Program-made: the position numbers and the translations under genes
NCBI GenBank assembly: GCA_045579895.1
Contig: JAZNMT010000012.1
Location: 11,165-75,164, forward strand
DNA: 64,000 bases
DNA from: Paludibacteraceae bacterium
GTDB taxonomy: Bacteria > Bacteroidota > Bacteroidia > Bacteroidales > Paludibacteraceae
Direction: 5' to 3'
Notes under the pieces: model-generated
The model's database searches: none
Seen by the model: only the letters and a program-made list of their open reading frames with translations
What the model was told of the DNA's origin: nothing
Part shown: in pieces, positions 3,090 to 64,000 of the stretch
How the letters are laid out: every line of letters starts with the position of its first letter
Position numbering within the stretch: the stretch's first letter is position 1

Positions 3090-4075
3090 TGCGTCGTTGG
3101 ATTGGATGGATTATCGTGCTTTGCCTTCTGGCAGGTGGCGCTACTACTTGCGCCATCCGCTGGGAGGCGTGGTTTGGTAATCCACCTGAGCCAGAATGGA
3201 CAGAACCTATCATCACGCATCAGTTTAAGACTTTTAACAATGATAGTGTATTGCGTGCTTTGCAACGTGACACATTGTCGTTTCTTTTGTTGGGCGATAT
3301 TCATAATTCGCTCACTAACGACCAAATGGCTGCTCTCTCTGAGCGCCATTCGGATATACAATTCTGGGCACAGACGGGCGATTGGATGGAGAGACCTTAT
3401 CTTTGCTATGAGCAGATGATGTACCAATCGTTGTTGGGTACACGTCTTGACTCGCTGCCTATTGTAGCCATTCCTGGTAATCACGAATATCTTAAAGGAA
3501 TAGTAAAAACCTTACCCGAACATTGGAAAACCATCTTCCCTAATCCGCAGAATGGTCCTGCCAGGTTCATAGGTACGACCTACTTTGTGGACTTCCCACA
3601 CCTGCGACTAATAGCTATTGACACGGATGGTCTGCATCGTATGTCAGACTATACACAAGTAGCATTTTGGCTAAAGAAAACCTTGCGTGAGGCAGGTAAT
3701 AAGTTCACCATAGTGATGATGCACCATCCTGTATATAGTACCGCTAAAGGCAGACAAAATCCGCTCATGTGGCTAACGTTTTACGATGCTATGCGCGAAG
3801 CGGATGTGGTGTTCTCTGGTCATGACCATAACTACGCTCGCCGTACAGAGTATTATAAGGAGCGTTTTTGGAAGAAAGAAGAACCTACAGTGTTTATTAC
3901 TACCAACGCCTCGACAAAGAACTACCCCACCAAAGAGAATACGAAATACGACTATTCTTTCTCAGGCGCACCAGTGTATGAATATCTGCAAATCACTTCA
4001 GATGTATTACGTATCGCTACGTATGAAATGCATTCAGGCGAATTGCTGGATAAGGTAGAAATCTTACACAATTAA
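3089..4075 (+). CDS. calcineurin-like metallophosphoesterase with N-terminal membrane anchor
   Basis: The metallophosphatase motifs are present: LLLGDIHNS, QTGDWMER, IPGNHEY, VMMHHPVYS, FSGHDHNYAR. The N-terminus is hydrophobic. Confidence 0.8.
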   Translation: MRRWIGWIIVLCLLAGGATTCAIRWEAWFGNPPEPEWTEPIITHQFKTFNNDSVLRALQRDTLSFLLLGDIHNSLTNDQMAALSERHSDIQFWAQTGDWMERPYLCYEQMMYQSLLGTRLDSLPIVAIPGNHEYLKGIVKTLPEHWKTIFPNPQNGPARFIGTTYFVDFPHLRLIAIDTDGLHRMSDYTQVAFWLKKTLREAGNKFTIVMMHHPVYSTAKGRQNPLMWLTFYDAMREADVVFSGHDHNYARRTEYYKERFWKKEEPTVFITTNASTKNYPTKENTKYDYSFSGAPVYEYLQITSDVLRIATYEMHSGELLDKVEILHN

Positions 4076-55419: not shown

Positions 55420-55945
55420 CGGGGCCCGTCCACGAGTGCTTTCCGTTCCCTTCCACTCACTCGCACTCCGCGCCTTCTTTCTTAATGACTCCTGAATACC
55501 ATTCAGGTATTCTTGCGTTCCCGTCCTTTGTTATGCTTTGGCCAGTGGCCTGACAAATAACTTCGTCACTATCCTCTCATCTTGTCCCCCAACCATCTGT
55601 CTAGTGCTCGGCGATTTCCCGCCGAGTATCCTCGTGTTTCTATGTTTATTCTCCCGAATGGTATTCGGGTATTCCTAGAGCGGCTAGTATGGCTAGTGCT
55701 ACTACTCCCCGCCACCAGTCTTGTGCTCGCGGGGTCCCGATAACGTTTGGCGTCATGGGGCGCATTTCGCGGCTAACTCCGCGAGTTTCTCCCCGTTCTC
55801 TACCGGTCACTCCAGCATACCCGGAATTTCCGTCTCCTCCCCCTCTCCACCCGCCGAAGGCGCACACCCTCACTACGTGACACTACCTGCGCTCCGCGCA
55901 CACAACCTCGGCGAAGCCGACCTCCAGGGCACAGCCATTTTTTAG
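55420..55945 (-). ncRNA. unassigned ~0.5-kb GC-rich, hairpin-dense non-coding segment (candidate large structured RNA; strand assignment tentative)
   Basis: No ORF exceeds 75 aa in any frame. The plus strand is C/T-rich and the minus strand is G/A-rich. At least eight short GC-rich stem-loops are listed in the findings. The composition differs sharply from both flanks. Confidence 0.3.
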
Positions 55946-55957
55946 AAAATAGCGGTA

Positions 55958-55997
55958 TTATTTGCATTTATGCAAAAATTGTTGTAACTTTGCGGGC
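55958..55997 (+). promoter_or_regulatory. conserved 40-mer promoter-like module (palindromic TTTGCATttATGCAAA plus TAacTTTG), copy 1
   Basis: ttatttgcatttatgcaaaaattgttgtaactttgcgggc matches 57824-57863 at 39/40. Confidence 0.5.
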
Positions 55998-56076
55998 AAA
56001 AGAGGAAGAAATAAGAAAAATCAAAAAAACACAAATAAAATAAACTTTTTTTAAGCCCCTGACAAGTTTTAGCGTC

Positions 56077-56144: not shown

Positions 56145-56232
56145 AAAAATTGCAAAATAAGACGGTTTTGGCGAAAGAAAATTGCAAAATAAGACGGTTT
56201 AATGTGCGAAAATTTGCAAAATAAGACATTTT
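56145..56232 (+). repeat. three ~24-bp direct repeats at 32-bp spacing (iteron/operator-like) upstream of the AAA ATPase gene
   Basis: The units are aaaaattgcaaaataagacggttt, gaaaattgcaaaataagacggttt and gaaaatttgcaaaataagacatttt. The array ends about 25 nt before the TAacTTTG box at 56258. Confidence 0.8.
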
Positions 56233-56257
56233 ATTTGTATGTTTCATTTATTTTTTG

Positions 56258-56265
56258 TAACTTTG
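56258..56265 (+). promoter_or_regulatory. -7 box (TAacTTTG) for the AAA ATPase gene
   Basis: It lies 26 nt upstream of the ATG at 56291. Confidence 0.45.
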
Positions 56266-56290
56266 TCGCGATTTTTAACACCATTCTATT

Positions 56291-57574: not shown

Positions 57575-57653
57575 ACCTTAAACATTAGACACCCTACACT
57601 TTAAACATTAAACAACTGCGGCTCCGCCGCCACACTCTACACCCTACACTCTA

Positions 57654-57818
57654 ATGTTCAGTTCTTCAAATTATTTCCAAACATTTTCCAATCGCTGATC
57701 GGATAATCTAAATTACTATCAAAGAGATTGAGCAACAAAAAGCCATATATATGCTTCAGCAGGGCGAATGACTTTCTGACTTCGATAAAGAGATAAAAAA
57801 AACTACAAGATAAATAAC
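57654..57818 (+). pseudogene. decayed, internally deleted remnant of a DUF1016/YhcG nuclease gene
   Basis: 57654-57719 aligns to 58288-58352 (the first 36 nt are identical, then it diverges). 57721-57818 aligns to 59023-59121 at more than 90%. About 670 bp of the gene body is missing. Confidence 0.75.
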
Positions 57819-57823
57819 CAATT

Positions 57824-57863
57824 TTATTTGCATTTATGCAAAAATTGTTGTATCTTTGCGGGC
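57824..57863 (+). promoter_or_regulatory. conserved 40-mer promoter-like module, copy 2 (TAtcTTTG)
   Basis: ttatttgcatttatgcaaaaattgttgtatctttgcgggc matches 55958-55997 at 39/40. Confidence 0.5.
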
Positions 57864-58025
57864 TAAATATAGAATTATGGATAGAATACAAAATCTTCAT
57901 ACTCTAGAGGAGCGAATAAAAGTCATTAGATAAATGCCGTAAGTTCTATCGTGTATATGGAATCTCGTCTACAGCGTGGACGAAATCTGACTAAAATTTA
58001 TGCAGTAAAACTCATAAAAAGAAAT

Positions 58026-59072
58026 ATGGACTTAGTGCTATCATTTAATAATTCCGCTAATCTGCTCACAGATGCAAGGCAGATCATTGATAAAACGAAG
58101 GAAATAGCGTTCCGCTCGGTAAATGTGGCCATGCTGCAACGCAATTGGTATTTGGGTAAGCGTATAAGTGAGGAAATTCTTCAGGGCGAAGATCGTGCTG
58201 AATATGGTAGTCAAGTTATTCTTCAACTCTCCAAAGAACTGACTGACATATATGGTAAGGGATTTGGTAAGAATAACTTATATCGCAATGTTCAGTTCTT
58301 CAAATTATTTCCAAACATTTTCCCAACACTGTCGGGACAATCCAAATTACTCACTTGGTCGCACTATACTTTGCTATTGTCTATCTCTAACGATGAGGCA
58401 CGAGCATGGTATGCAGACGAGGCATATCGTGAGGGGTGGAGTGTTCGCACGATGCAACGCAATATATCTTCGCAGTATTACCATCGCATGCTCCTATCGC
58501 AACATAAGGAGGGCGTGCGCGAGGAAATGAAGCAACTCACGGCTCCTATGCAAGCGGATAAGCTAGAGTTTATAAAGAATCCTGTCGTGGCAGAGTTTTT
58601 AGGGTTGGCTCCTAATAGCGATTTGTACGAGTCGAAGTTAGAGAGTGCTATTATCGCACATATCCAGAAGTTTGTAATGGAGCTTGGCAAGGGATATGCT
58701 TTCGTGGCTCGCCAGCAGCATGTTCGCACGGACATGGGGGATTTCTATATTGACTTGGTGTTCTATAATTATATCCTCAAATGCTTCTTGCTAATAGACT
58801 TGAAGACTTCTCAAATCACGCATCAGGATGTAGGACAAATGGACATGTATGTACGCATGTATGACCAACTGAAGCGTACAGAAGGCGATAATCCTACTAT
58901 TGGTCTTGTTCTATGTGCAGACACAAGTGAGGATATGGCTCGTTATTCGGTTTTGCATGAGAATCCTCAACTCTTCCAAGCCAAATATGTGCTGTATCTT
59001 CCTACGAAGGAGGAGTTAGCAAAAGAGATTGAGCAACAAAAAGCCATATATATGCTTCAGCAGGGCGAATGA
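58026..59072 (+). CDS. DUF1016 (YhcG-like) PD-(D/E)xK nuclease-family protein
   Basis: NVAMLQRNWYLGKRISEE, GFGKNNLYRNVQFF and the C-terminal core DLVFYNYILKCFLLIDLKT (D...D/E-x-K) are present. The start is uncertain: GTG 57951, ATG 57957 or ATG 58026. Confidence 0.75.
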   Translation: MDLVLSFNNSANLLTDARQIIDKTKEIAFRSVNVAMLQRNWYLGKRISEEILQGEDRAEYGSQVILQLSKELTDIYGKGFGKNNLYRNVQFFKLFPNIFPTLSGQSKLLTWSHYTLLLSISNDEARAWYADEAYREGWSVRTMQRNISSQYYHRMLLSQHKEGVREEMKQLTAPMQADKLEFIKNPVVAEFLGLAPNSDLYESKLESAIIAHIQKFVMELGKGYAFVARQQHVRTDMGDFYIDLVFYNYILKCFLLIDLKTSQITHQDVGQMDMYVRMYDQLKRTEGDNPTIGLVLCADTSEDMARYSVLHENPQLFQAKYVLYLPTKEELAKEIEQQKAIYMLQQGE

Positions 59073-59142
59073 GTTTCTGACTTCGATAAAGAGATTAATA
59101 AACTACAATCGAAATAACCAAACAAGATTGCAAAAAAATCCA

Positions 59143-59150
59143 TATTCTTG
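59143..59150 (+). promoter_or_regulatory. degenerate -7 box (TAttCTTG, context cTTGCGGGCaaaa) ahead of the candidate system operon
   Basis: It shares the ..TTGCGGGC context with the two 40-mer modules and lies about 90 nt upstream of the ATG at 59241. Confidence 0.3.
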
Positions 59151-59240
59151 CGGGCAAAAAAAATATAAATTAGATTGACTAAAAAACAAGATATATTACG
59201 CACTCTTAACTTTGCTGAAGCAAATGTTGAAGATAAAAAC

Positions 59241-61049
59241 ATGAAGCGCCTCTTTCGCGATTATACTGAGAGACGATTCTTGGTTGGGTATATTCGTCCA
59301 AAAAACCGAAAGTGGTTTAGCAAAACACATTTGTACAATGTAAGACTTGAAGATGCCAAACGCAAAGGCGGTGTAAATGATAAGAATCCATTGTCTTATG
59401 CTGTAGATTATGTTATTCTTTACAAAAATAGCAAGGAAAATAAATACAAAATATACAAGGTTGAGAAATCAGAAGTGCTTTCAATAGAAGCAATGCTACA
59501 ACTTGATTACCCTAATCCTCGTAGTGAGTATTTGGTGTTTACTTTAGGGGAGGAAGTTAAATTCGAGGATATTGACCTTAAAGTTCTGCTTGATAGTGAA
59601 TGTAAAGCAAAGCATGAACCAATTTATCTTACTGGCTATAATTTGTTTAGTTGCTATAGAAAAAAAGCATCTAAAAAAATCGGTCTTGTTGATGCTGATT
59701 TGTTATGCAATGGCACTCGCCATCCTAACTTAGCTTTACTTAAGATAGCAGGTTATTTATTTGATAATAACATTTCCTTTGAACTCATTACAGATACTAA
59801 GACAGATATAAGCCAATATACATATATCTACATGTCCCGCGTCTTTACTTTCACAGAAGAACCTACTTTCTATCTCAATGCTTCTGCTTCTGAAAAGAAA
59901 AAGTTTCGTTTAGGTGGAACTGGATATTATGCAAACGAAAAGTCTGTTTCTAAGTTTCGTCAATTGCGAGAAGAAGATATGGACAGACTAAGTCACGACG
60001 CATTTTTGAATACCCTTACTTGCAAGCATACTGGCAAACAGGGAATCAATATGGCAGTTCAAATGCCATACTATGACCTGTACAAAGAATATATTGACAG
60101 ACAAGTTGAAGCGGGATTTAAACGTGATAAATACAAAGATTACGAAAAATATTCCATTGGATTTCTTACGAGAAAATGTTTCCGTCATTGCCCATTTTGC
60201 GTAAATAAATTGGAGGATGGTGTTGTGTCGTATTCAAAACTCGAATGGTTCCACGACAAGAAACGCCCTTATGTATATTTCTGGGATGATAATTTTTTAG
60301 GAGCTCCATACCGTATATGGAGAGCGCACCTTCAGTATTTGATTGACAATAAAATATCATTCCAATTTCGTCAAGGTTTAGACGAACGGTTGCTTGCAGA
60401 AGATGAACATGGAGAAGAGATGGCACAAATGCTTAGTCGATCTCGTTACCATGGAGATTTTATATTTGCTTTTGACAATTGGAAAGACCGCGAAGTTATT
60501 GAGCGTGCATTAAAGATTTGGAAGCGCCATAATCCAAAGAAGGGAACTAAGTTCTATCTATTCTGTGGATTCATGCAGACGCAAGACAATTTTGACAAGT
60601 TCTATCGTGATATTTGGGAGTTGTTCCAACGAATTAAAATCCTCATGCAATATGGTTGTGTAGGATATGTAATGCGCCATGAGGACTACCACAAATCTCC
60701 ATTAGAGAATATCTATGTGCAAGTTGCTCGATGGTGTAATCAACAGGCGTTCTACAAGAAAATGTCTTTTTGGGAATATACTTATCGCAATCAAACATTT
60801 TGGGAAGAACAGGCTGGATTTGAAGTTCCTCAAAAATTAAAATCATTCATTGACTTTGAGCGTGACTTACAAGCAGGCTATTACGAAAAAGTGGATGTTC
60901 GAGGCAAGGTTCGAAAAATATCACGTCCTATACGAACATTATTGAATCTCTTAGAAATGTATCCACAACATAGGGAGGAGTTACTTGAAATGTTTGACTA
61001 TAAGATGTCCAATTTGGTAGATTCTACTTTATGGGAAAACAATGAATAA
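59241..61049 (+). CDS. radical-SAM superfamily enzyme (~600 aa) with an uncharacterised N-terminal domain and a Rossmann-like (B12-binding-domain-like) module
   Basis: The CxxxCxxC cluster sits in GFLTRKCFRHCPFCV, followed by VYFWDDNFLG and FRQGLDERL, as in class-B-type rSAM proteins. Upstream, IGLVDADLL...PNLALLKIAGYLFDNNISFELITD resembles their N-terminal domain. The ATG at 59241 is preferred over the TTG at 59175. Confidence 0.65.
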   Translation: MKRLFRDYTERRFLVGYIRPKNRKWFSKTHLYNVRLEDAKRKGGVNDKNPLSYAVDYVILYKNSKENKYKIYKVEKSEVLSIEAMLQLDYPNPRSEYLVFTLGEEVKFEDIDLKVLLDSECKAKHEPIYLTGYNLFSCYRKKASKKIGLVDADLLCNGTRHPNLALLKIAGYLFDNNISFELITDTKTDISQYTYIYMSRVFTFTEEPTFYLNASASEKKKFRLGGTGYYANEKSVSKFRQLREEDMDRLSHDAFLNTLTCKHTGKQGINMAVQMPYYDLYKEYIDRQVEAGFKRDKYKDYEKYSIGFLTRKCFRHCPFCVNKLEDGVVSYSKLEWFHDKKRPYVYFWDDNFLGAPYRIWRAHLQYLIDNKISFQFRQGLDERLLAEDEHGEEMAQMLSRSRYHGDFIFAFDNWKDREVIERALKIWKRHNPKKGTKFYLFCGFMQTQDNFDKFYRDIWELFQRIKILMQYGCVGYVMRHEDYHKSPLENIYVQVARWCNQQAFYKKMSFWEYTYRNQTFWEEQAGFEVPQKLKSFIDFERDLQAGYYEKVDVRGKVRKISRPIRTLLNLLEMYPQHREELLEMFDYKMSNLVDSTLWENNE

Positions 61050-61066
61050 TTATAAATCTATATACT

Positions 61067-62080
61067 ATGGCAAAATGGCAACTAACTACGCTTAATATTA
61101 GCGACATTTGTTTGGATGAAGAGAATCCTCGTATCATGCAAATTCTTGAAAATTACGTAGAGGTAAATAGCGCAATAATAGCAAATGCGCTATCTGATGA
61201 CTCAGATAATAGTTCACATACTTCATATCATTCTCTATTGGACTCAATAAAGACTAGTGGATGTATCATAAATCCGATTCATGTTAATCACGATGAACAA
61301 GGACGTTATGTCGTTATAGAAGGAAATACTCGCGTTCAAATCTACAAGGAGTTTTTAGCCAAGAATGTCCCTGGCAATTGGGAACAGATACCAGCATTAG
61401 TATATGAACAATTAGATGAATTGCAAAAACACGAAATTCGGCTGCAATCACACTTAGTGGGACCTCGTGATTGGAATCCATATTCTAAGGCTAAATATTT
61501 ACATAAATTGAGCCATTCAGGATTACCAATGAACCAAATTATCTCTATGTGCGGTGGACGTGCTTCTGAAATAAACAAATATATTCAAGCATATGAATAT
61601 ATGGAAGATTATTATCGCACATACATCAATTCTATCCCAAATATGGAATTTGACCCACAAGAATTTTCAAAGTTCTTAGAATATCAAAATTCCCGTATTC
61701 AAGGAGCGATACGTCGCAAGGGCTATGAAGATAATCAGTTTGCTAAGTGGGTCGCAGATGGCAATGTTGATAAAGCAATGGCTGTTCGTCGTATTCCTGA
61801 TGTGTTAAAAAACGAAGAAGCTCATAAAGTTTTTGTTAAACAAAATTTGACAGAAGCCGAGAAAGTTTTGCATGCTGCTGAATTGATGACTACTGATCTA
61901 AGTGAATATCCATATGAAAAACTAGCTCAAGAACTTCGTATAAAGTTAGATAATTTAGCCGCCACTGAAATAAAACTATTGGCTACAAAAGAATCACATA
62001 TTGAGAAAAGAGAAATTTTGGAGTTGCTTAAATCAAAGTTAGATTTCATTATTGAAACAATGATGGAAATGGAGGACTAA
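61067..62080 (+). CDS. ParB/Srx-fold N-terminal domain protein with helical C-terminal region
   Basis: ISDICLDEENPRI and NPIHV...GRYVVIEGNTRVQIY match the ParB-like nuclease/NTPase domain motifs. It starts 18 nt after the upstream stop. Confidence 0.6.
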   Translation: MAKWQLTTLNISDICLDEENPRIMQILENYVEVNSAIIANALSDDSDNSSHTSYHSLLDSIKTSGCIINPIHVNHDEQGRYVVIEGNTRVQIYKEFLAKNVPGNWEQIPALVYEQLDELQKHEIRLQSHLVGPRDWNPYSKAKYLHKLSHSGLPMNQIISMCGGRASEINKYIQAYEYMEDYYRTYINSIPNMEFDPQEFSKFLEYQNSRIQGAIRRKGYEDNQFAKWVADGNVDKAMAVRRIPDVLKNEEAHKVFVKQNLTEAEKVLHAAELMTTDLSEYPYEKLAQELRIKLDNLAATEIKLLATKESHIEKREILELLKSKLDFIIETMMEMED

Positions 62081-62496
62081 TGGCAGAATCCCTTAATCAT
62101 ATAACCTATGTAAAAAGGATTGTTGAGTATGCGAAGGACATACCCTCTGCTTTTATTCCTAGTTGCTTACTAGCCGATCTTCCAGATTTTCCAGAACGTC
62201 CTATAGCAACGCTCGATGGATATATTCCAGATGTATTATATAACGATTCACATACAATAATCATTGGTGAAGCCAAAACTATTCGAGATGTTGAAAATGA
62301 CCATACGGAACGTCAGATTAATAGTTACATAGATGAGGTCAGATGTCACAAAGGAACTCGTCATATTGTGATTTGCTCAAATGCATTATCATTTTCGCAC
62401 ATTAAAAATATGATTGTTCGTAAAAAGATGCGTGAGAATATTTCGGATATAAGTTTTCATATTTTAGACAACATATATAAAGTGGCTGTTATATGA
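62080..62496 (+). CDS. small PD-(D/E)xK (restriction-endonuclease-like) protein
   Basis: The 138 aa ORF reads GYIPDVLYNDSHTIIIGEAKT, which gives a PD...ExK arrangement. Its start overlaps the upstream stop (TAATG). Confidence 0.5.
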   Translation: MAESLNHITYVKRIVEYAKDIPSAFIPSCLLADLPDFPERPIATLDGYIPDVLYNDSHTIIIGEAKTIRDVENDHTERQINSYIDEVRCHKGTRHIVICSNALSFSHIKNMIVRKKMRENISDISFHILDNIYKVAVI

Positions 62497-63962
62497 GCAA
62501 TATAAGATACAATACTGTTTATAATTTATCAGCTAAACTTAATGCGTTTAAGTATCAGCACGAGGCTTTCCTTGAAATTAAGGATAAACCATATGCTGCT
62601 ATTTTCCATGAACAGGGATTAGGAAAGACTAAAATAGCCATTGATTTACTTCTATATTGGCTGTCTTCTTGTGATGTGGATACTGTTATGGTTGTAACTA
62701 AAAAGACACTTGTCCCCAATTGGGTGGATGAGTTTGCAACACATACGAATCTTCGTCCTAAAGTAATGAATAATAGCAAGGGTAATAATTATTATATTCT
62801 TAATAGTCCAGTTCGCACCATTATTACAAATTTCGAAACTATTTCTGGAGAAAAAGAGAGGATTGAGAGATTTTTGAAAACAAGAAATGTTGCTATTATT
62901 ATTGATGAATCTGCAAAAATCAAAAACCCTGATTCAAAACTTACCCAAGACTTCTTATATCTTGCACCTCTGTTCTACAGAAAAGTTATAATGTCAGGAA
63001 CTCCTGTAGCAAATCGTCCTTATGATATATGGTCTCAAATATATTTTCTTGATTTAGGTGAAAGCCTTGGTACTGACTTTGCCTCTTTTAAGCATACATG
63101 CGATTTGTCAAATGATTTAGTTCATAATACAGAAAGAAAGGAACTTTTTGAAGACAATGTATCTAAAATCTTTGATAAAATTCGCTCGTTTACCGTTCGA
63201 GAAACAAAGAATAGTGGTATAATAACTTTACCATCAAAAATTTATCATGACGTTTATATCGCTTTTGAAAATCAACAACAAATGATGTATAAACAGATAC
63301 AAAACGAAATGACCATTCTGCTCAAACAAGGTGATGAGACAATTTTGGATGAGTCTTCAGATACCATTAAAAGACTTTTGCGATTAGTACAAGTTACTTC
63401 CAATCCTAAATTGTTAGACGAAGCATATGAAGGTCCATCTGCAAAGGAGATGCTTCTTGATAGACTTATAACGCAAATCATCGAACGCAATGAAAAAGCT
63501 ATTGTTTGGAGTAGTTTTACGGGAAATATTGATGAGTTCTGCAAAAAATACAAACATTTAAATGCTGTAAAAATTACGGGAAAGATGAGTACAGAAGACC
63601 GTATTCGCTCTGTTAAAGCATTCAAAGAAGGTAATGCATGTTTGCTTTTTGCTACTCCACAGTCGGCAAAAGAGGGCTTAACATTAACTGTTGCCAATAA
63701 CGCTATTTTCTATGATAGAGGATTTAATCTCGACGATTACTTACAAGCTCAAGATAGAATACATCGTATCTCGCAAAAAAAAGATTGCAATATTTACAAC
63801 CTTTTGATTGAAGATAGTATTGATATATGGGTTGATTACTTGCTCAAAGCAAAACAACAAGCAGCTTTTCTGGCTCAAGGTGATATTAGCAAAGAAGAAT
63901 ATCAGAAAAATGCGGATTATTCTTTTGCTCAAATTGTTCAGGAAATTTTAAAAACTAATTAA
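62493..63962 (+). CDS. compact SNF2-family helicase/translocase
   Basis: Motif I is HEQGLGKT, motif II is IIIDESAKIKN, motif III is MSGTPVANRPYDIW and motifs V/VI are TPQSAKEGLTLT...QAQDRIHRISQ. An ATGA overlap joins it to the upstream gene. Confidence 0.85.
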   Translation: MSNIRYNTVYNLSAKLNAFKYQHEAFLEIKDKPYAAIFHEQGLGKTKIAIDLLLYWLSSCDVDTVMVVTKKTLVPNWVDEFATHTNLRPKVMNNSKGNNYYILNSPVRTIITNFETISGEKERIERFLKTRNVAIIIDESAKIKNPDSKLTQDFLYLAPLFYRKVIMSGTPVANRPYDIWSQIYFLDLGESLGTDFASFKHTCDLSNDLVHNTERKELFEDNVSKIFDKIRSFTVRETKNSGIITLPSKIYHDVYIAFENQQQMMYKQIQNEMTILLKQGDETILDESSDTIKRLLRLVQVTSNPKLLDEAYEGPSAKEMLLDRLITQIIERNEKAIVWSSFTGNIDEFCKKYKHLNAVKITGKMSTEDRIRSVKAFKEGNACLLFATPQSAKEGLTLTVANNAIFYDRGFNLDDYLQAQDRIHRISQKKDCNIYNLLIEDSIDIWVDYLLKAKQQAAFLAQGDISKEEYQKNADYSFAQIVQEILKTN

Positions 63963-63963
63963 T

Positions 63964-64000
63964 ATGGAAAGCAGAAAGACTACAATGACTATCGGTAAAC
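63964..64000 (+). CDS. 5' end of a further operon gene (truncated by the window edge)
   Basis: An ATG lies 1 nt after the SNF2 stop. MESRKTTMTIGK... remains open to the end of the window. Confidence 0.4.
   Translation, partial: MESRKTTMTIGK

Follow-up and report, generated by a model that had tools for sequence, protein, structure and literature searches.

What does a radical S-adenosylmethionine (radical-SAM) protein do at the head of an operon of DNA-acting proteins? The question is raised by a 64,000-nucleotide (nt) stretch of a Paludibacteraceae genome (contig JAZNMT010000012.1, positions 11,165 to 75,164; hereafter the window), near whose end a 624-amino-acid (aa) protein with a CxxxCxxC motif is encoded directly ahead of ParB-like, nuclease-motif, and SNF2 genes. 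A sequence-only reading of the window had taken this protein for an unusual radical-SAM enzyme with an added N-terminal domain and had suggested DNA or a nucleotide as its substrate. We followed this up with sequence searches, structure predictions, and a survey of gene contexts. The reading that we prefer, at a probability of about 0.5, is that the protein is the DNA-modifying "M" subunit of a restriction-modification (R-M)-like defense operon. It is drawn from the first-gene position before four restriction modules, from copies in mobile elements, and from an operon led by a Dam-type fusion protein.

Radical-SAM identity and domain architecture

Pfam, NCBIfam, and PADLOC scans of the window protein gave nothing meaningful: matches to DUF6487, Lipid_desat, and TIGR04100 lay far below the cut-offs, no PADLOC family (viperins included) matched at E<0.1, and neither did the radical-SAM family PF04055. 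The PDB sequences yielded no match to phmmer with the single protein and only a chance parvalbumin match to a 54-sequence profile, so homology to solved radical-SAM enzymes is visible at the fold level only.

An AlphaFold2 model of the full-length protein (pLDDT 79) has four modules: a PUA-like domain, a Rossmann-like domain, the core, and a helical tail (Table 1). The best Foldseek match in the PDB is the cobalamin-dependent radical-SAM enzyme OxsB (E 3e-5, probability 1.0, TM 0.33, 13% identity), followed by MiaB (1.2e-3, probability 1.0), LipA (0.05), and LAM (0.24). TM-scores are low (0.19 to 0.39) because the query is multidomain. Matches in BFVD are headed by two phage proteins (5e-8 and 2e-7), followed by a COG1032 Fe-S oxidoreductase, MtaB, and a B12-binding-like protein. 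PHROG 9298, "radical SAM domain protein," matches residues 167 to 538 (E 3.4e-35). PF04055 matches five of seven phage and plasmid relatives (5e-5 to 3e-3), starting exactly at the Cys motif, at sub-threshold scores of 18 to 24 bits against a cut-off of 29.5; in the diverse set it matches 11 of 54 proteins at E<0.01 and is alone among Pfam families in recurring. From the fold matches to OxsB and MiaB, PHROG 9298, and the sub-threshold PF04055 matches in relatives, we conclude that the protein belongs to the radical-SAM superfamily as a far-diverged member, its domain order being like that of class B or of MiaB, and we predict that it would cleave SAM. The sequence-only reading had likewise proposed a radical-SAM enzyme with a class-B-like Rossmann module, and the protein falls in no characterized metabolic subfamily.

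The CxxxCxxC motif lies where that reading had put it, near residue 335. Neither 30 close homologues nor 54 diverse ones (30 to 56% identity) deviate from its Cys triad, and the motif, with the family-wide form C[FIV]RxCxFC, is present in 109 among the 149 representatives listed (numbered with P). Three of the listed proteins span the site and lack the motif: P0149, a frameshifted fragment, P0207, and P0221. The others without it are apparently fragments that stop short, as judged from match coordinates and, for some, from individual checks. P0207 and P0221 are full-length proteins that have lost the Cys motif and in which the core, DDN and QGLDxR included, is otherwise retained; the two may have been inactivated or put to another use. 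The cluster loop (residues 330 to 357) is the sole stretch of the core with low pLDDT, as expected of a cofactor-free model.

Across the 54 diverse members the invariant residues are F224, G247, G248, G250, P298, Y303, C335, C339, C342, and, in the core, D371 and D372 (VYFWDDNF), Q400, G401, D403, and R405 (Q400-G401-x-D403-x-R405), D434 (AFDN), and R486; W520 and N522 are nearly so. Two segments that had been singled out by eye, IGLVDADLL...PNLALLKIAGYL (from residue 169) and VYFWDDNF (367 to 374), are among the most conserved parts of the protein. In the model the Rossmann-like beta-alpha unit covers residues 168 to 250 (strands 168-173, 201-204, 215-221, and 244-246; helix 186-197). By our own reading, S221-x-V and G247-G248 look like the SxL...GG portion of the classical B12 signature; the window protein has no match to Pfam PF02310, and MiaB-type non-B12 domains match the Rossmann-like domain too. 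Cobalamin binding by this domain is possible. The C-terminal tail, the most variable part of the core protein, has no fold or family match over residues ~546 to 624, and the earlier statement that the C-terminal region resembles nothing known holds for these last ~80 aa, a set of helices.

Among known enzymes, OxsB and class B offer the closest likeness. They share the order of an extra N-terminal domain, a Rossmann-like domain, a CxxxCxxC core, and a helical C-terminal bundle, as well as a DDN-type strand after the cluster, and OxsB, the best PDB fold match, acts on a deoxynucleotide. The differences are a sequence identity of 13% at a TM-score of ~0.3, the lack of a Pfam B12-binding or Radical_SAM match or a PDB sequence profile match in the window protein, an N-terminal domain that is PUA-like here, and a defense context rather than antibiotic biosynthesis. 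MiaB, MtaB, RimO, and LipA are also among the fold matches or share the arrangement of a flavodoxin-like domain followed by the core, and MiaB acts on nucleic acid. The window protein differs from them in lacking a second conserved Cys triad and a TRAM domain: C335, C339, and C342 are the only family-wide invariant Cys residues in the 54 sequences, so an auxiliary cluster is unlikely, and Pfam finds no TRAM domain, the C terminus being helical in the model. MiaB-type sulfur insertion is therefore unlikely. MiaB- or LipA-type sulfur insertion or phosphorothioation was considered, as the DndFGH and Pbe partners point to a phosphorothioate-like mark, and was rejected as the default, no auxiliary-cluster Cys being conserved. 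RlmN/Cfr-type (class A) methylation was also rejected; C495 and C521 are conserved among close relatives only, not family-wide.

The first ~150 aa had been described as matching nothing. This holds for sequence searches (residues 1 to 165 have no Pfam match, ASCH included) but not for the fold. Modeled in isolation (pLDDT 83), the domain gave some 27 top PDB matches that are all ASCH, YTH, McrB-N, or EVE domains, among them ZmASCH, MJECL36, the YTH domains of Mmi1 and YTHDF, the DNA-binding N-terminal domain of S. marinus McrB, and the EVE protein PH1033. The scores are weak and the list is uniform (best E 2.6e-3, probability 0.99, TM 0.43 to 0.51), giving weak but consistent grounds for predicting a PUA-like fold. 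The earlier suggestion of a nucleic-acid or modified-base reader fits, since only PUA-like readers match the isolated model and the domain is shared with a Dam-type methylase. That protein, P0216 (loci L084 and L085), carries the same N-terminal domain (52% identity, E 2e-48) fused to a D12-class (Dam-type) N6-adenine DNA methyltransferase. Its operon resembles that of the window in several respects: the fusion gene follows a YhcG/DUF1016 gene, leads the operon, and precedes a ParB-superfamily protein with a nuclease motif (a nuclease-DndB[DGQHR] fusion) and an SF2 helicase. It differs in that the catalytic domain is an ordinary SAM-dependent N6-adenine methylase and in that the downstream proteins are analogous, not orthologous, to those of the window (no BLAST match). 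In the radical-SAM family the N-terminal domain is optional; the majority form, ~470 aa long, lacks it, and long forms occur in 7 of the 81 loci surveyed below.

Operon contexts and solo copies across the family

Gene contexts were surveyed in the first 81 loci (numbered with L), 10 kb on each side, comprising 1,087 open reading frames (ORFs). The radical-SAM gene is the first gene of one of four operon types in 73 of them. This anchoring of several restriction-type modules, which the sequence-only reading had not seen, is the chief new finding. Type A, that of the window, continues with ParB, a nuclease (p138), SNF2, ParB, and a p545-like gene (14 loci, including the close relatives of the window). 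Type B is DISARM-like, with a NERD/UvrD helicase, a protein of ~800 aa (cluster c2), DrmA (PADLOC 9e-173), and DrmB (34 loci). Type C consists of DndF (5e-93), DndG (7e-43), and DndH (E = 0) in 22 loci, and type D of a p545N-like protein, PbeA (7e-203), and PbeC (2e-84) in 3. The gap to the next gene in typed loci ranges from -23 to +28 nt, with one of 57 nt. The four types do not form separate groups on a neighbor-joining tree of the enzyme core but are interleaved (for instance, L011 of type C falls with L010 and L012 of type B, and the type A clade of the window with type D loci), which indicates that the gene moves as a cassette between restriction modules. The c2 protein of type B, which lies between the NERD helicase and DrmA genes (L009 13181-15583), has no Pfam, PADLOC, or PHROG match.

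DndFGH, Pbe, and DISARM are partners of DNA-modification modules (PMC10853773). The sister loci resemble Dnd, DndCDEA-PbeABCD, and DISARM in joining a modifying function to a translocase/nuclease set, and genuine DndF/G/H, PbeA/PbeC, and DrmA/DrmB genes stand directly behind the radical-SAM gene. They differ in that DndA to DndE, a DndC-type PAPS reductase, and DrmMI/MII are missing from the operons and not conserved within 10 kb on either side in the 81 loci, and none is in the window; one radical-SAM gene takes the place of the modification genes. Modification genes were sought by BLAST with five methylase and three PAPS-reductase queries and by NPPY and PCxxFS motif scans. Within the limited sensitivity of the motif scan, no methyltransferase or PAPS-reductase/DndC-like gene is conserved in the surveyed flanks, and a hidden gene of this kind near the operons was rejected, the matches being sporadic (downstream in L060; in the prophage-like L078 and L081). 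L050 and L066 show DrmB as the last gene of the DISARM-like operon, without a methylase.

The module of the window (ParB, PD-(D/E)xK, SNF2, ParB, and p545) corresponds to no named system. It shares with Dpd a ParB-like protein (DpdB) and an SNF2-type protein (DpdE), found there with an unusual DNA modification, and the SNF2 protein of the window matches the DpdE model at 1.7e-35. The precursor pathway of Dpd also includes a radical-SAM enzyme, QueE. The window differs from Dpd in having no DpdA/TGT, DpdC, or preQ0 genes, a radical-SAM protein that is not QueE-like, and a helicase about half as long as DpdE. A ParB/SNF2 module with another first gene was looked for and rejected; in the contexts of the first ParB family that were inspected, the radical-SAM gene is upstream even at 38% identity.

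Upstream of the operon, relatives often carry a small controller-like gene of the XRE-type helix-turn-helix (HTH) class; controller genes sit upstream in a similar way in R-M systems. Many short-form loci have a small acidic ORF (85 to 115 aa, clusters c13/c20; ...ELVxWSxPxxDxLVLVxxxxLVCL...) immediately 5' of the radical-SAM gene, often after the XRE-type HTH gene (Table 1). It has no family match, and the idea that it is a split-off N-terminal domain was rejected, the hidden Markov model of that domain matching long forms only.

Phages of Oscillospiraceae, Bacteroides/Phocaeicola, Clostridium tetani, Marinitoga, and Methanomassiliicoccales carry solo relatives. Inspection of five phages placed the solo homologue within the replication/recombination region in each. 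A DNA methyltransferase gene is directly adjacent in the Oscillospiraceae phage and within ~4 kb in LoVEphage and BKO1-TP3; other neighbors are ParB, helicase, exonuclease, Erf, and RusA genes, with a PAPS reductase gene in LoVEphage. A Trichlorobacter plasmid carries the homologue with PAPS-reductase genes on both sides and a cytosine methylase gene ~2 kb away. Orphan protective methylases typically occupy such positions. In LoVEphage (L086, OY731433.1), the depositors annotated a 5S ribosomal RNA (barrnap) at 3179-3284, ~700 nt 5' of the homologue. Some relatives (P0170, 734 aa; plasmid LC711081.1, 24554-25105) have a LAGLIDADG/intein-type insertion just before or within the core, as seen from a Pfam LAGLIDADG_3 match (9e-9) and from a record annotated "radical SAM ... 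with an N-terminal intein homing...". Such insertions hint that the enzyme is important for the mobile elements bearing it.

More than 3,200 homologues are present in a 90%-clustered database; 120 that were listed are all without a Pfam domain and are named "hypothetical protein" at most. An exhaustive search gave at least 1,399 clusters at 50% identity (E<=1e-3). Members come mostly from anaerobes and their viruses and are common in gut and rumen Bacteroidales and their phages. The hosts include Bacteroidales, Akkermansia, Kiritimatiellia, Clostridia, and Selenomonadaceae, a spread over several phyla that indicates horizontal transfer. Almost all hosts are strict anaerobes, in keeping with an oxygen-sensitive enzyme. 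Cultured carriers are Paraprevotella clara YIT 11840 and Prevotella sp. tc2-28, with the DndFGH type, and Parabacteroides segnis BX2 and Dysgonomonas sp. 520, with the DISARM-like type. Open-access papers and bioRxiv yielded no description of the family and none of a radical-SAM partner for DndFGH, DISARM, or Pbe.

Gene model, operon, and island in the window

The sequence-only reading had started the gene at an ATG at 59241 (602 aa). An uninterrupted ORF was found over that span, but its start is probably the TTG 66 nt farther 5': the 22 residues between the two codons (MTKKQDILRTLNFAEANVEDKN) are kept in homologues whose own start, an ATG, is at the equivalent codon, and a Bacteroidetes -7 box lies ~20 nt 5' of the TTG. 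On both grounds we adopted the longer gene (Table 1). The box TATTCTTGCGGG aligns with TATCTTTGCGGG / TAACTTTGCGGG 5' of the orthologous gene in L001, L003, and L005. It occurs once in the window and belongs to a longer element repeated before each cassette of the island. A scan of the region for sigma-70 promoters and terminators was uninformative, and tRNA and Rfam scans of 55 to 64 kb found nothing.

Table 1. Coordinates of the radical-SAM gene, its modules, neighboring genes, and related elements (window positions unless a locus is named)
Feature	Position	Strand	Details
Promoter-like box TATTCTTGCGGG (core TATTCTTG, 59143-59150)	59143..59154	+	Bacteroidetes -7 type TAnnTTTG, one mismatch
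Radical-SAM-like ORF	59175..61049	+	624 aa, TTG start, stop codon included, reading frame unbroken
PUA-like (ASCH/YTH/EVE-type) beta-barrel domain	59244..59669	+	Residues ~24-165; fold-level, predicted model
Rossmann-like (B12-binding-like / flavodoxin-like) domain	59676..59939	+	Residues ~168-255; invariant GLxDxDLL, GTRHPNL, GGTG
Radical-SAM core	60150..60809	+	Residues ~326-545; alternating beta/alpha at 326-522
Putative [4Fe-4S]/SAM cluster motif C335-F-R-H-C339-P-F-C342 (CxxxCx-aromatic-C)	60177..60200	+	Residues 335-342, read from translation
C-terminal helical tail	60810..61046	+	Residues ~546-624; helices 558-566, 584-595, 597-607, 611-614
Gene 2, ParB/Srx-fold protein	61067..62080	+	337 aa; invariant NPR, EGNxR motifs
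Gene 3, small PD-(D/E)xK (restriction-endonuclease-fold) protein	62080..62496	+	138 aa; motif only
Gene 4, SNF2-family helicase/translocase	62493..63962	+	489 aa; Pfam SNF2-rel_dom 1.9e-26, Helicase_C 5.5e-17
Gene 5 start, second ParB-fold protein	63964..64000	+	328 aa in L001; continues beyond window
Last operon gene, with ~225-aa N-terminal domain	L001 7746-9383; L091 11884-13146; L094 11889-14288, 14293-15030; L006 11860-12540		
Small acidic ORF (c13/c20), examples	L010 9709-9981; L011 9719-9976; L024 9610-9957; L030 3092-3442; others		
Promoter-like repeat, window copies	55958-56001; 57824-57867; 56231-56274 (weak); 59143-59154 (partial)		
Promoter-like repeat, copies in relatives	L003 9926-9995, 7306-7361; L005 9944-9994, 8093-8148		

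As the sequence-only reading had it, the gene leads an operon of DNA-acting proteins; from the radical-SAM gene onward the successive gaps or overlaps are 17, -1, -4, and 1 nt. Gene 2 matches Pfam ParB_N (E 5.6e-4), PADLOC PDC-M38A and PD-Lambda-5_A, and ParB-like PHROG families, and its family always lies 3' of the radical-SAM gene in the contexts inspected (14 loci plus L091 and L094). The candidate nuclease encoded by gene 3 has P50-D51 ... E64-A65-K66 invariant in 13 homologues and no match in Pfam, NCBIfam, PADLOC, or PHROG. In PADLOC, gene 4 matches ZorD (4.8e-38), DpdE, and DrmD. Positions 63964-63999 translate to MESRKTTMTIGK, the same residues as at the start of the corresponding gene in L001. 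The operon is complete in L001, L002, L003, and L005 (Paludibacteraceae metagenome-assembled genomes, 97 to 98% DNA identity); beyond the window, near-identical contigs continue with this second ParB-like gene, a 545-aa gene 6, and housekeeping pur genes. The last gene of the operon has a conserved N-terminal domain of ~225 aa, without a match in the libraries searched, and varying C termini: an S24 (LexA/UmuD-type) peptidase, sigma-70 r2/r4, or other sequence. This domain occurs alone directly after the radical-SAM gene in Pbe-type operons and may therefore be a dedicated partner of the enzyme.

The operon lies in an island with a GC content of 33 to 38%, against 43 to 49% in the flanks. AAA_14/DUF4143 and YhcG genes, both PADLOC candidate defense genes, are also in the island. 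A promoter-like element of ~44 to 70 nt (TTATTTGCATTTATGCAAAAATTGTTGTAaCTTTGCGGGC, with a Bacteroidetes -7 box inside) precedes each cassette, namely the AAA_14/DUF4143 gene, the YhcG gene, and the radical-SAM operon. Related strains hold different cassettes between these repeats, which suggests cassette exchange by recombination between them. Positions 57653-57801 form direct repeats with 58287-58351 and 59022-59102 (81 nt at 96% and 65 nt at 88% identity); these are pieces of a second YhcG/DUF1016 gene just 5' of the intact copy (57951-59072) and look like the remnant of a duplication or of a replaced cassette. Three copies of AAAATTGCAAAATAAGACGGTTT at a 32-nt spacing (56146-56232) lie 5' of the AAA_14/DUF4143 gene and could be operator or iteron-like. 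Between the housekeeping gene and the low-GC island is a GC-rich noncoding stretch (55420-55940) with spurious Pro/Arg-rich ORFs only, no tRNA, and no Rfam match even at E<=1.

Readings of the enzyme's role

The gene context in the 81 loci and in the phages points to DNA, within what the sequence-only reading had proposed. If the protein is the DNA-modifying subunit, its three Cys would hold a [4Fe-4S] cluster and cleave SAM to a 5'-deoxyadenosyl radical, and the radical would attack a nucleotide in duplex DNA to leave a covalent mark, which we infer to be protective. Were the Rossmann-like domain to bind cobalamin, a non-nucleophilic carbon would receive a methyl group, as in class B; otherwise the mark would be another radical product. 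Given the domain order, class-B-type C-methylation is the most economical guess for the chemistry, and sulfur insertion is disfavored by the missing auxiliary cluster. The PUA-like domain, where present, would bind DNA, perhaps the enzyme's own product at hemimodified sites after replication. The SNF2, ParB, and nuclease partners would patrol DNA and attack what is unmarked, and the solo copies that phages and plasmids of the same anaerobes have, next to ordinary methylases, would serve to shield the DNA of those elements.

Radical-SAM chemistry on DNA polymers, up to the installing of a phage DNA modification, has a precedent in spore photoproduct lyase (SPL) and phage M6 gp53, which Lee et al. 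(2021) named as the only radical-SAM enzymes that, to their knowledge, act on DNA (PMC8989533). Both differ from the window protein. They are SPL-like and have neither a Rossmann nor a PUA domain, and the action of gp53 is limited to remodeling a hypermodification already in place; SPL is outside the top 50 fold matches of the window protein. The family described here, unlike these two, is both cellular and viral and is coupled to restriction modules.

Several points weigh against a DNA-modifying subunit. The DNA mark is hypothetical, the window protein is without a Pfam, NCBIfam, PADLOC, or PDB sequence match, and its SAM-binding motifs could not be mapped. R-M methylases typically have a fast-evolving target-recognition region; here the whole length is conserved (at least 55% identity across phyla), and no hypervariable specificity region stands out. 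Restriction modules with different mechanisms have very similar enzymes, so either all modules read the same mark or they read no mark. A modification module could lie elsewhere in the genome, beyond the 10 kb on each side. Rakesh et al. find DndFGH often without DndABCDE and argue for stand-alone action (PMC10853773).

A bolder form of the proposal, which we advance tentatively and would give somewhat less than an even chance, is that a stand-alone radical-SAM enzyme writes a new DNA mark that serves as the self-label for at least four unrelated restriction machines: DndFGH, Pbe, the DISARM-like module, and the new ParB/SNF2 module. The mark could be a cobalamin-dependent C-methylation or a radical-installed change of base, sugar, or backbone; the PUA-like domain would couple reading to writing, and phages would copy the enzyme to escape.

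The enzyme might instead act on free nucleotides, making an antiviral (deoxy)nucleotide analogue or depleting the pool, with the helicase and nuclease genes as a separate defense arm. OxsB speaks for this, being the best solved-structure match, with the same four-part layout and with 2'-deoxyadenosine phosphates (dAMP, dADP, and dATP) as substrates, as does the defense-island position next to the PDC-S01 and PDC-S02 genes. Radical-SAM nucleotide modifiers are known in defense, in the form of viperins, which act on nucleoside triphosphates, and of Ophion (10.1101/2025.09.30.679545), which is unrelated to the window family. We nevertheless consider this unlikely. Solo phage and plasmid copies near DNA methylases would be odd for the maker of an antiviral toxin, the N-terminal domain has a polymer-binding reader fold in common with a DNA methylase, and the gene is strictly the first before modules that normally need a self-mark. 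PADLOC gave no viperin match, and the likeness to OxsB is that of a TM-score of 0.33 and 13% identity.

About equally improbable is an accessory that does not mark self DNA; it could sense or activate, or it could be an effector whose chemical damage to, or tag on, invading DNA recruits the translocase/nuclease. One enzyme clade does serve four unrelated effector modules, like sensor cassettes elsewhere, a reader domain could recognize phage-specific modified bases, and DndFGH has been argued to stand alone (PMC10853773). Yet a host sensor would hardly be expected as a solo copy in phages and plasmids, the reader domain is missing from most family members, and the analogous operon, in which a Dam-type methylase with this N-terminal domain comes first, argues for the writer of a protective mark.

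Much less probable is a protein or peptide maturase that modifies a partner protein or a small upstream peptide. The small acidic ORF immediately upstream in many relatives would suit it, and the HXS defense system, unrelated to the window family, has a radical-SAM maturase (PMC13128918). The window and its close relatives, however, lack the small acidic ORF, the four operon types have no protein partner in common, the phage copies lie in a context of DNA replication and modification, and a SPASM/twitch-type extra Cys cluster is missing, the invariant Cys residues being three in number. We give slightly less credence still to a noncatalytic Fe-S or scaffold protein, in which a degenerate radical-SAM fold would serve DNA binding or redox sensing. 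It would account for curated radical-SAM models staying below threshold, for canonical SAM-binding motifs not being identified (the invariant DDN, QGLDxR, and AFDN are candidates), and for the two full-length relatives that lost the Cys motif. Against it, the polar set DDN, QGLDxR, AFDN, and R486 is invariant at 30 to 56% identity, as expected of an active site, and relatives carry inteins, whose usual location is a catalytically essential site. A housekeeping RNA-modifying (MiaB/RimO-like) or metabolic enzyme that merely sits beside a defense island, the least probable reading, has in its favor the MiaB and MtaB fold matches and the fact that ASCH domains were first linked to RNA metabolism, and is largely refuted by the missing MiaB auxiliary-cluster Cys and TRAM domain, the patchy distribution across phyla, the low GC content, and the strict operon linkage in 73 of 81 loci while neighboring housekeeping genes vary among strains.

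The preferred reading of a DNA-modifying subunit would make the operon an R-M-like defense system with an unprecedented class of modifying enzyme. If a new mark is indeed written, it would be a third chemical route to DNA self-marking, beside SN2 methylation and phosphorothioation/deazaguanine insertion; SPL and gp53 (PMC8989533) do not write a primary self-mark. The absence of self-attack by "orphan" DndFGH and methylase-less DISARM-like operons would then be explained, and a new six-gene defense system and a new phage counter-defense gene would be added. For bacterial epigenetics the mark would mean a new chemistry, invisible to methylase-based (REBASE-style) prediction.

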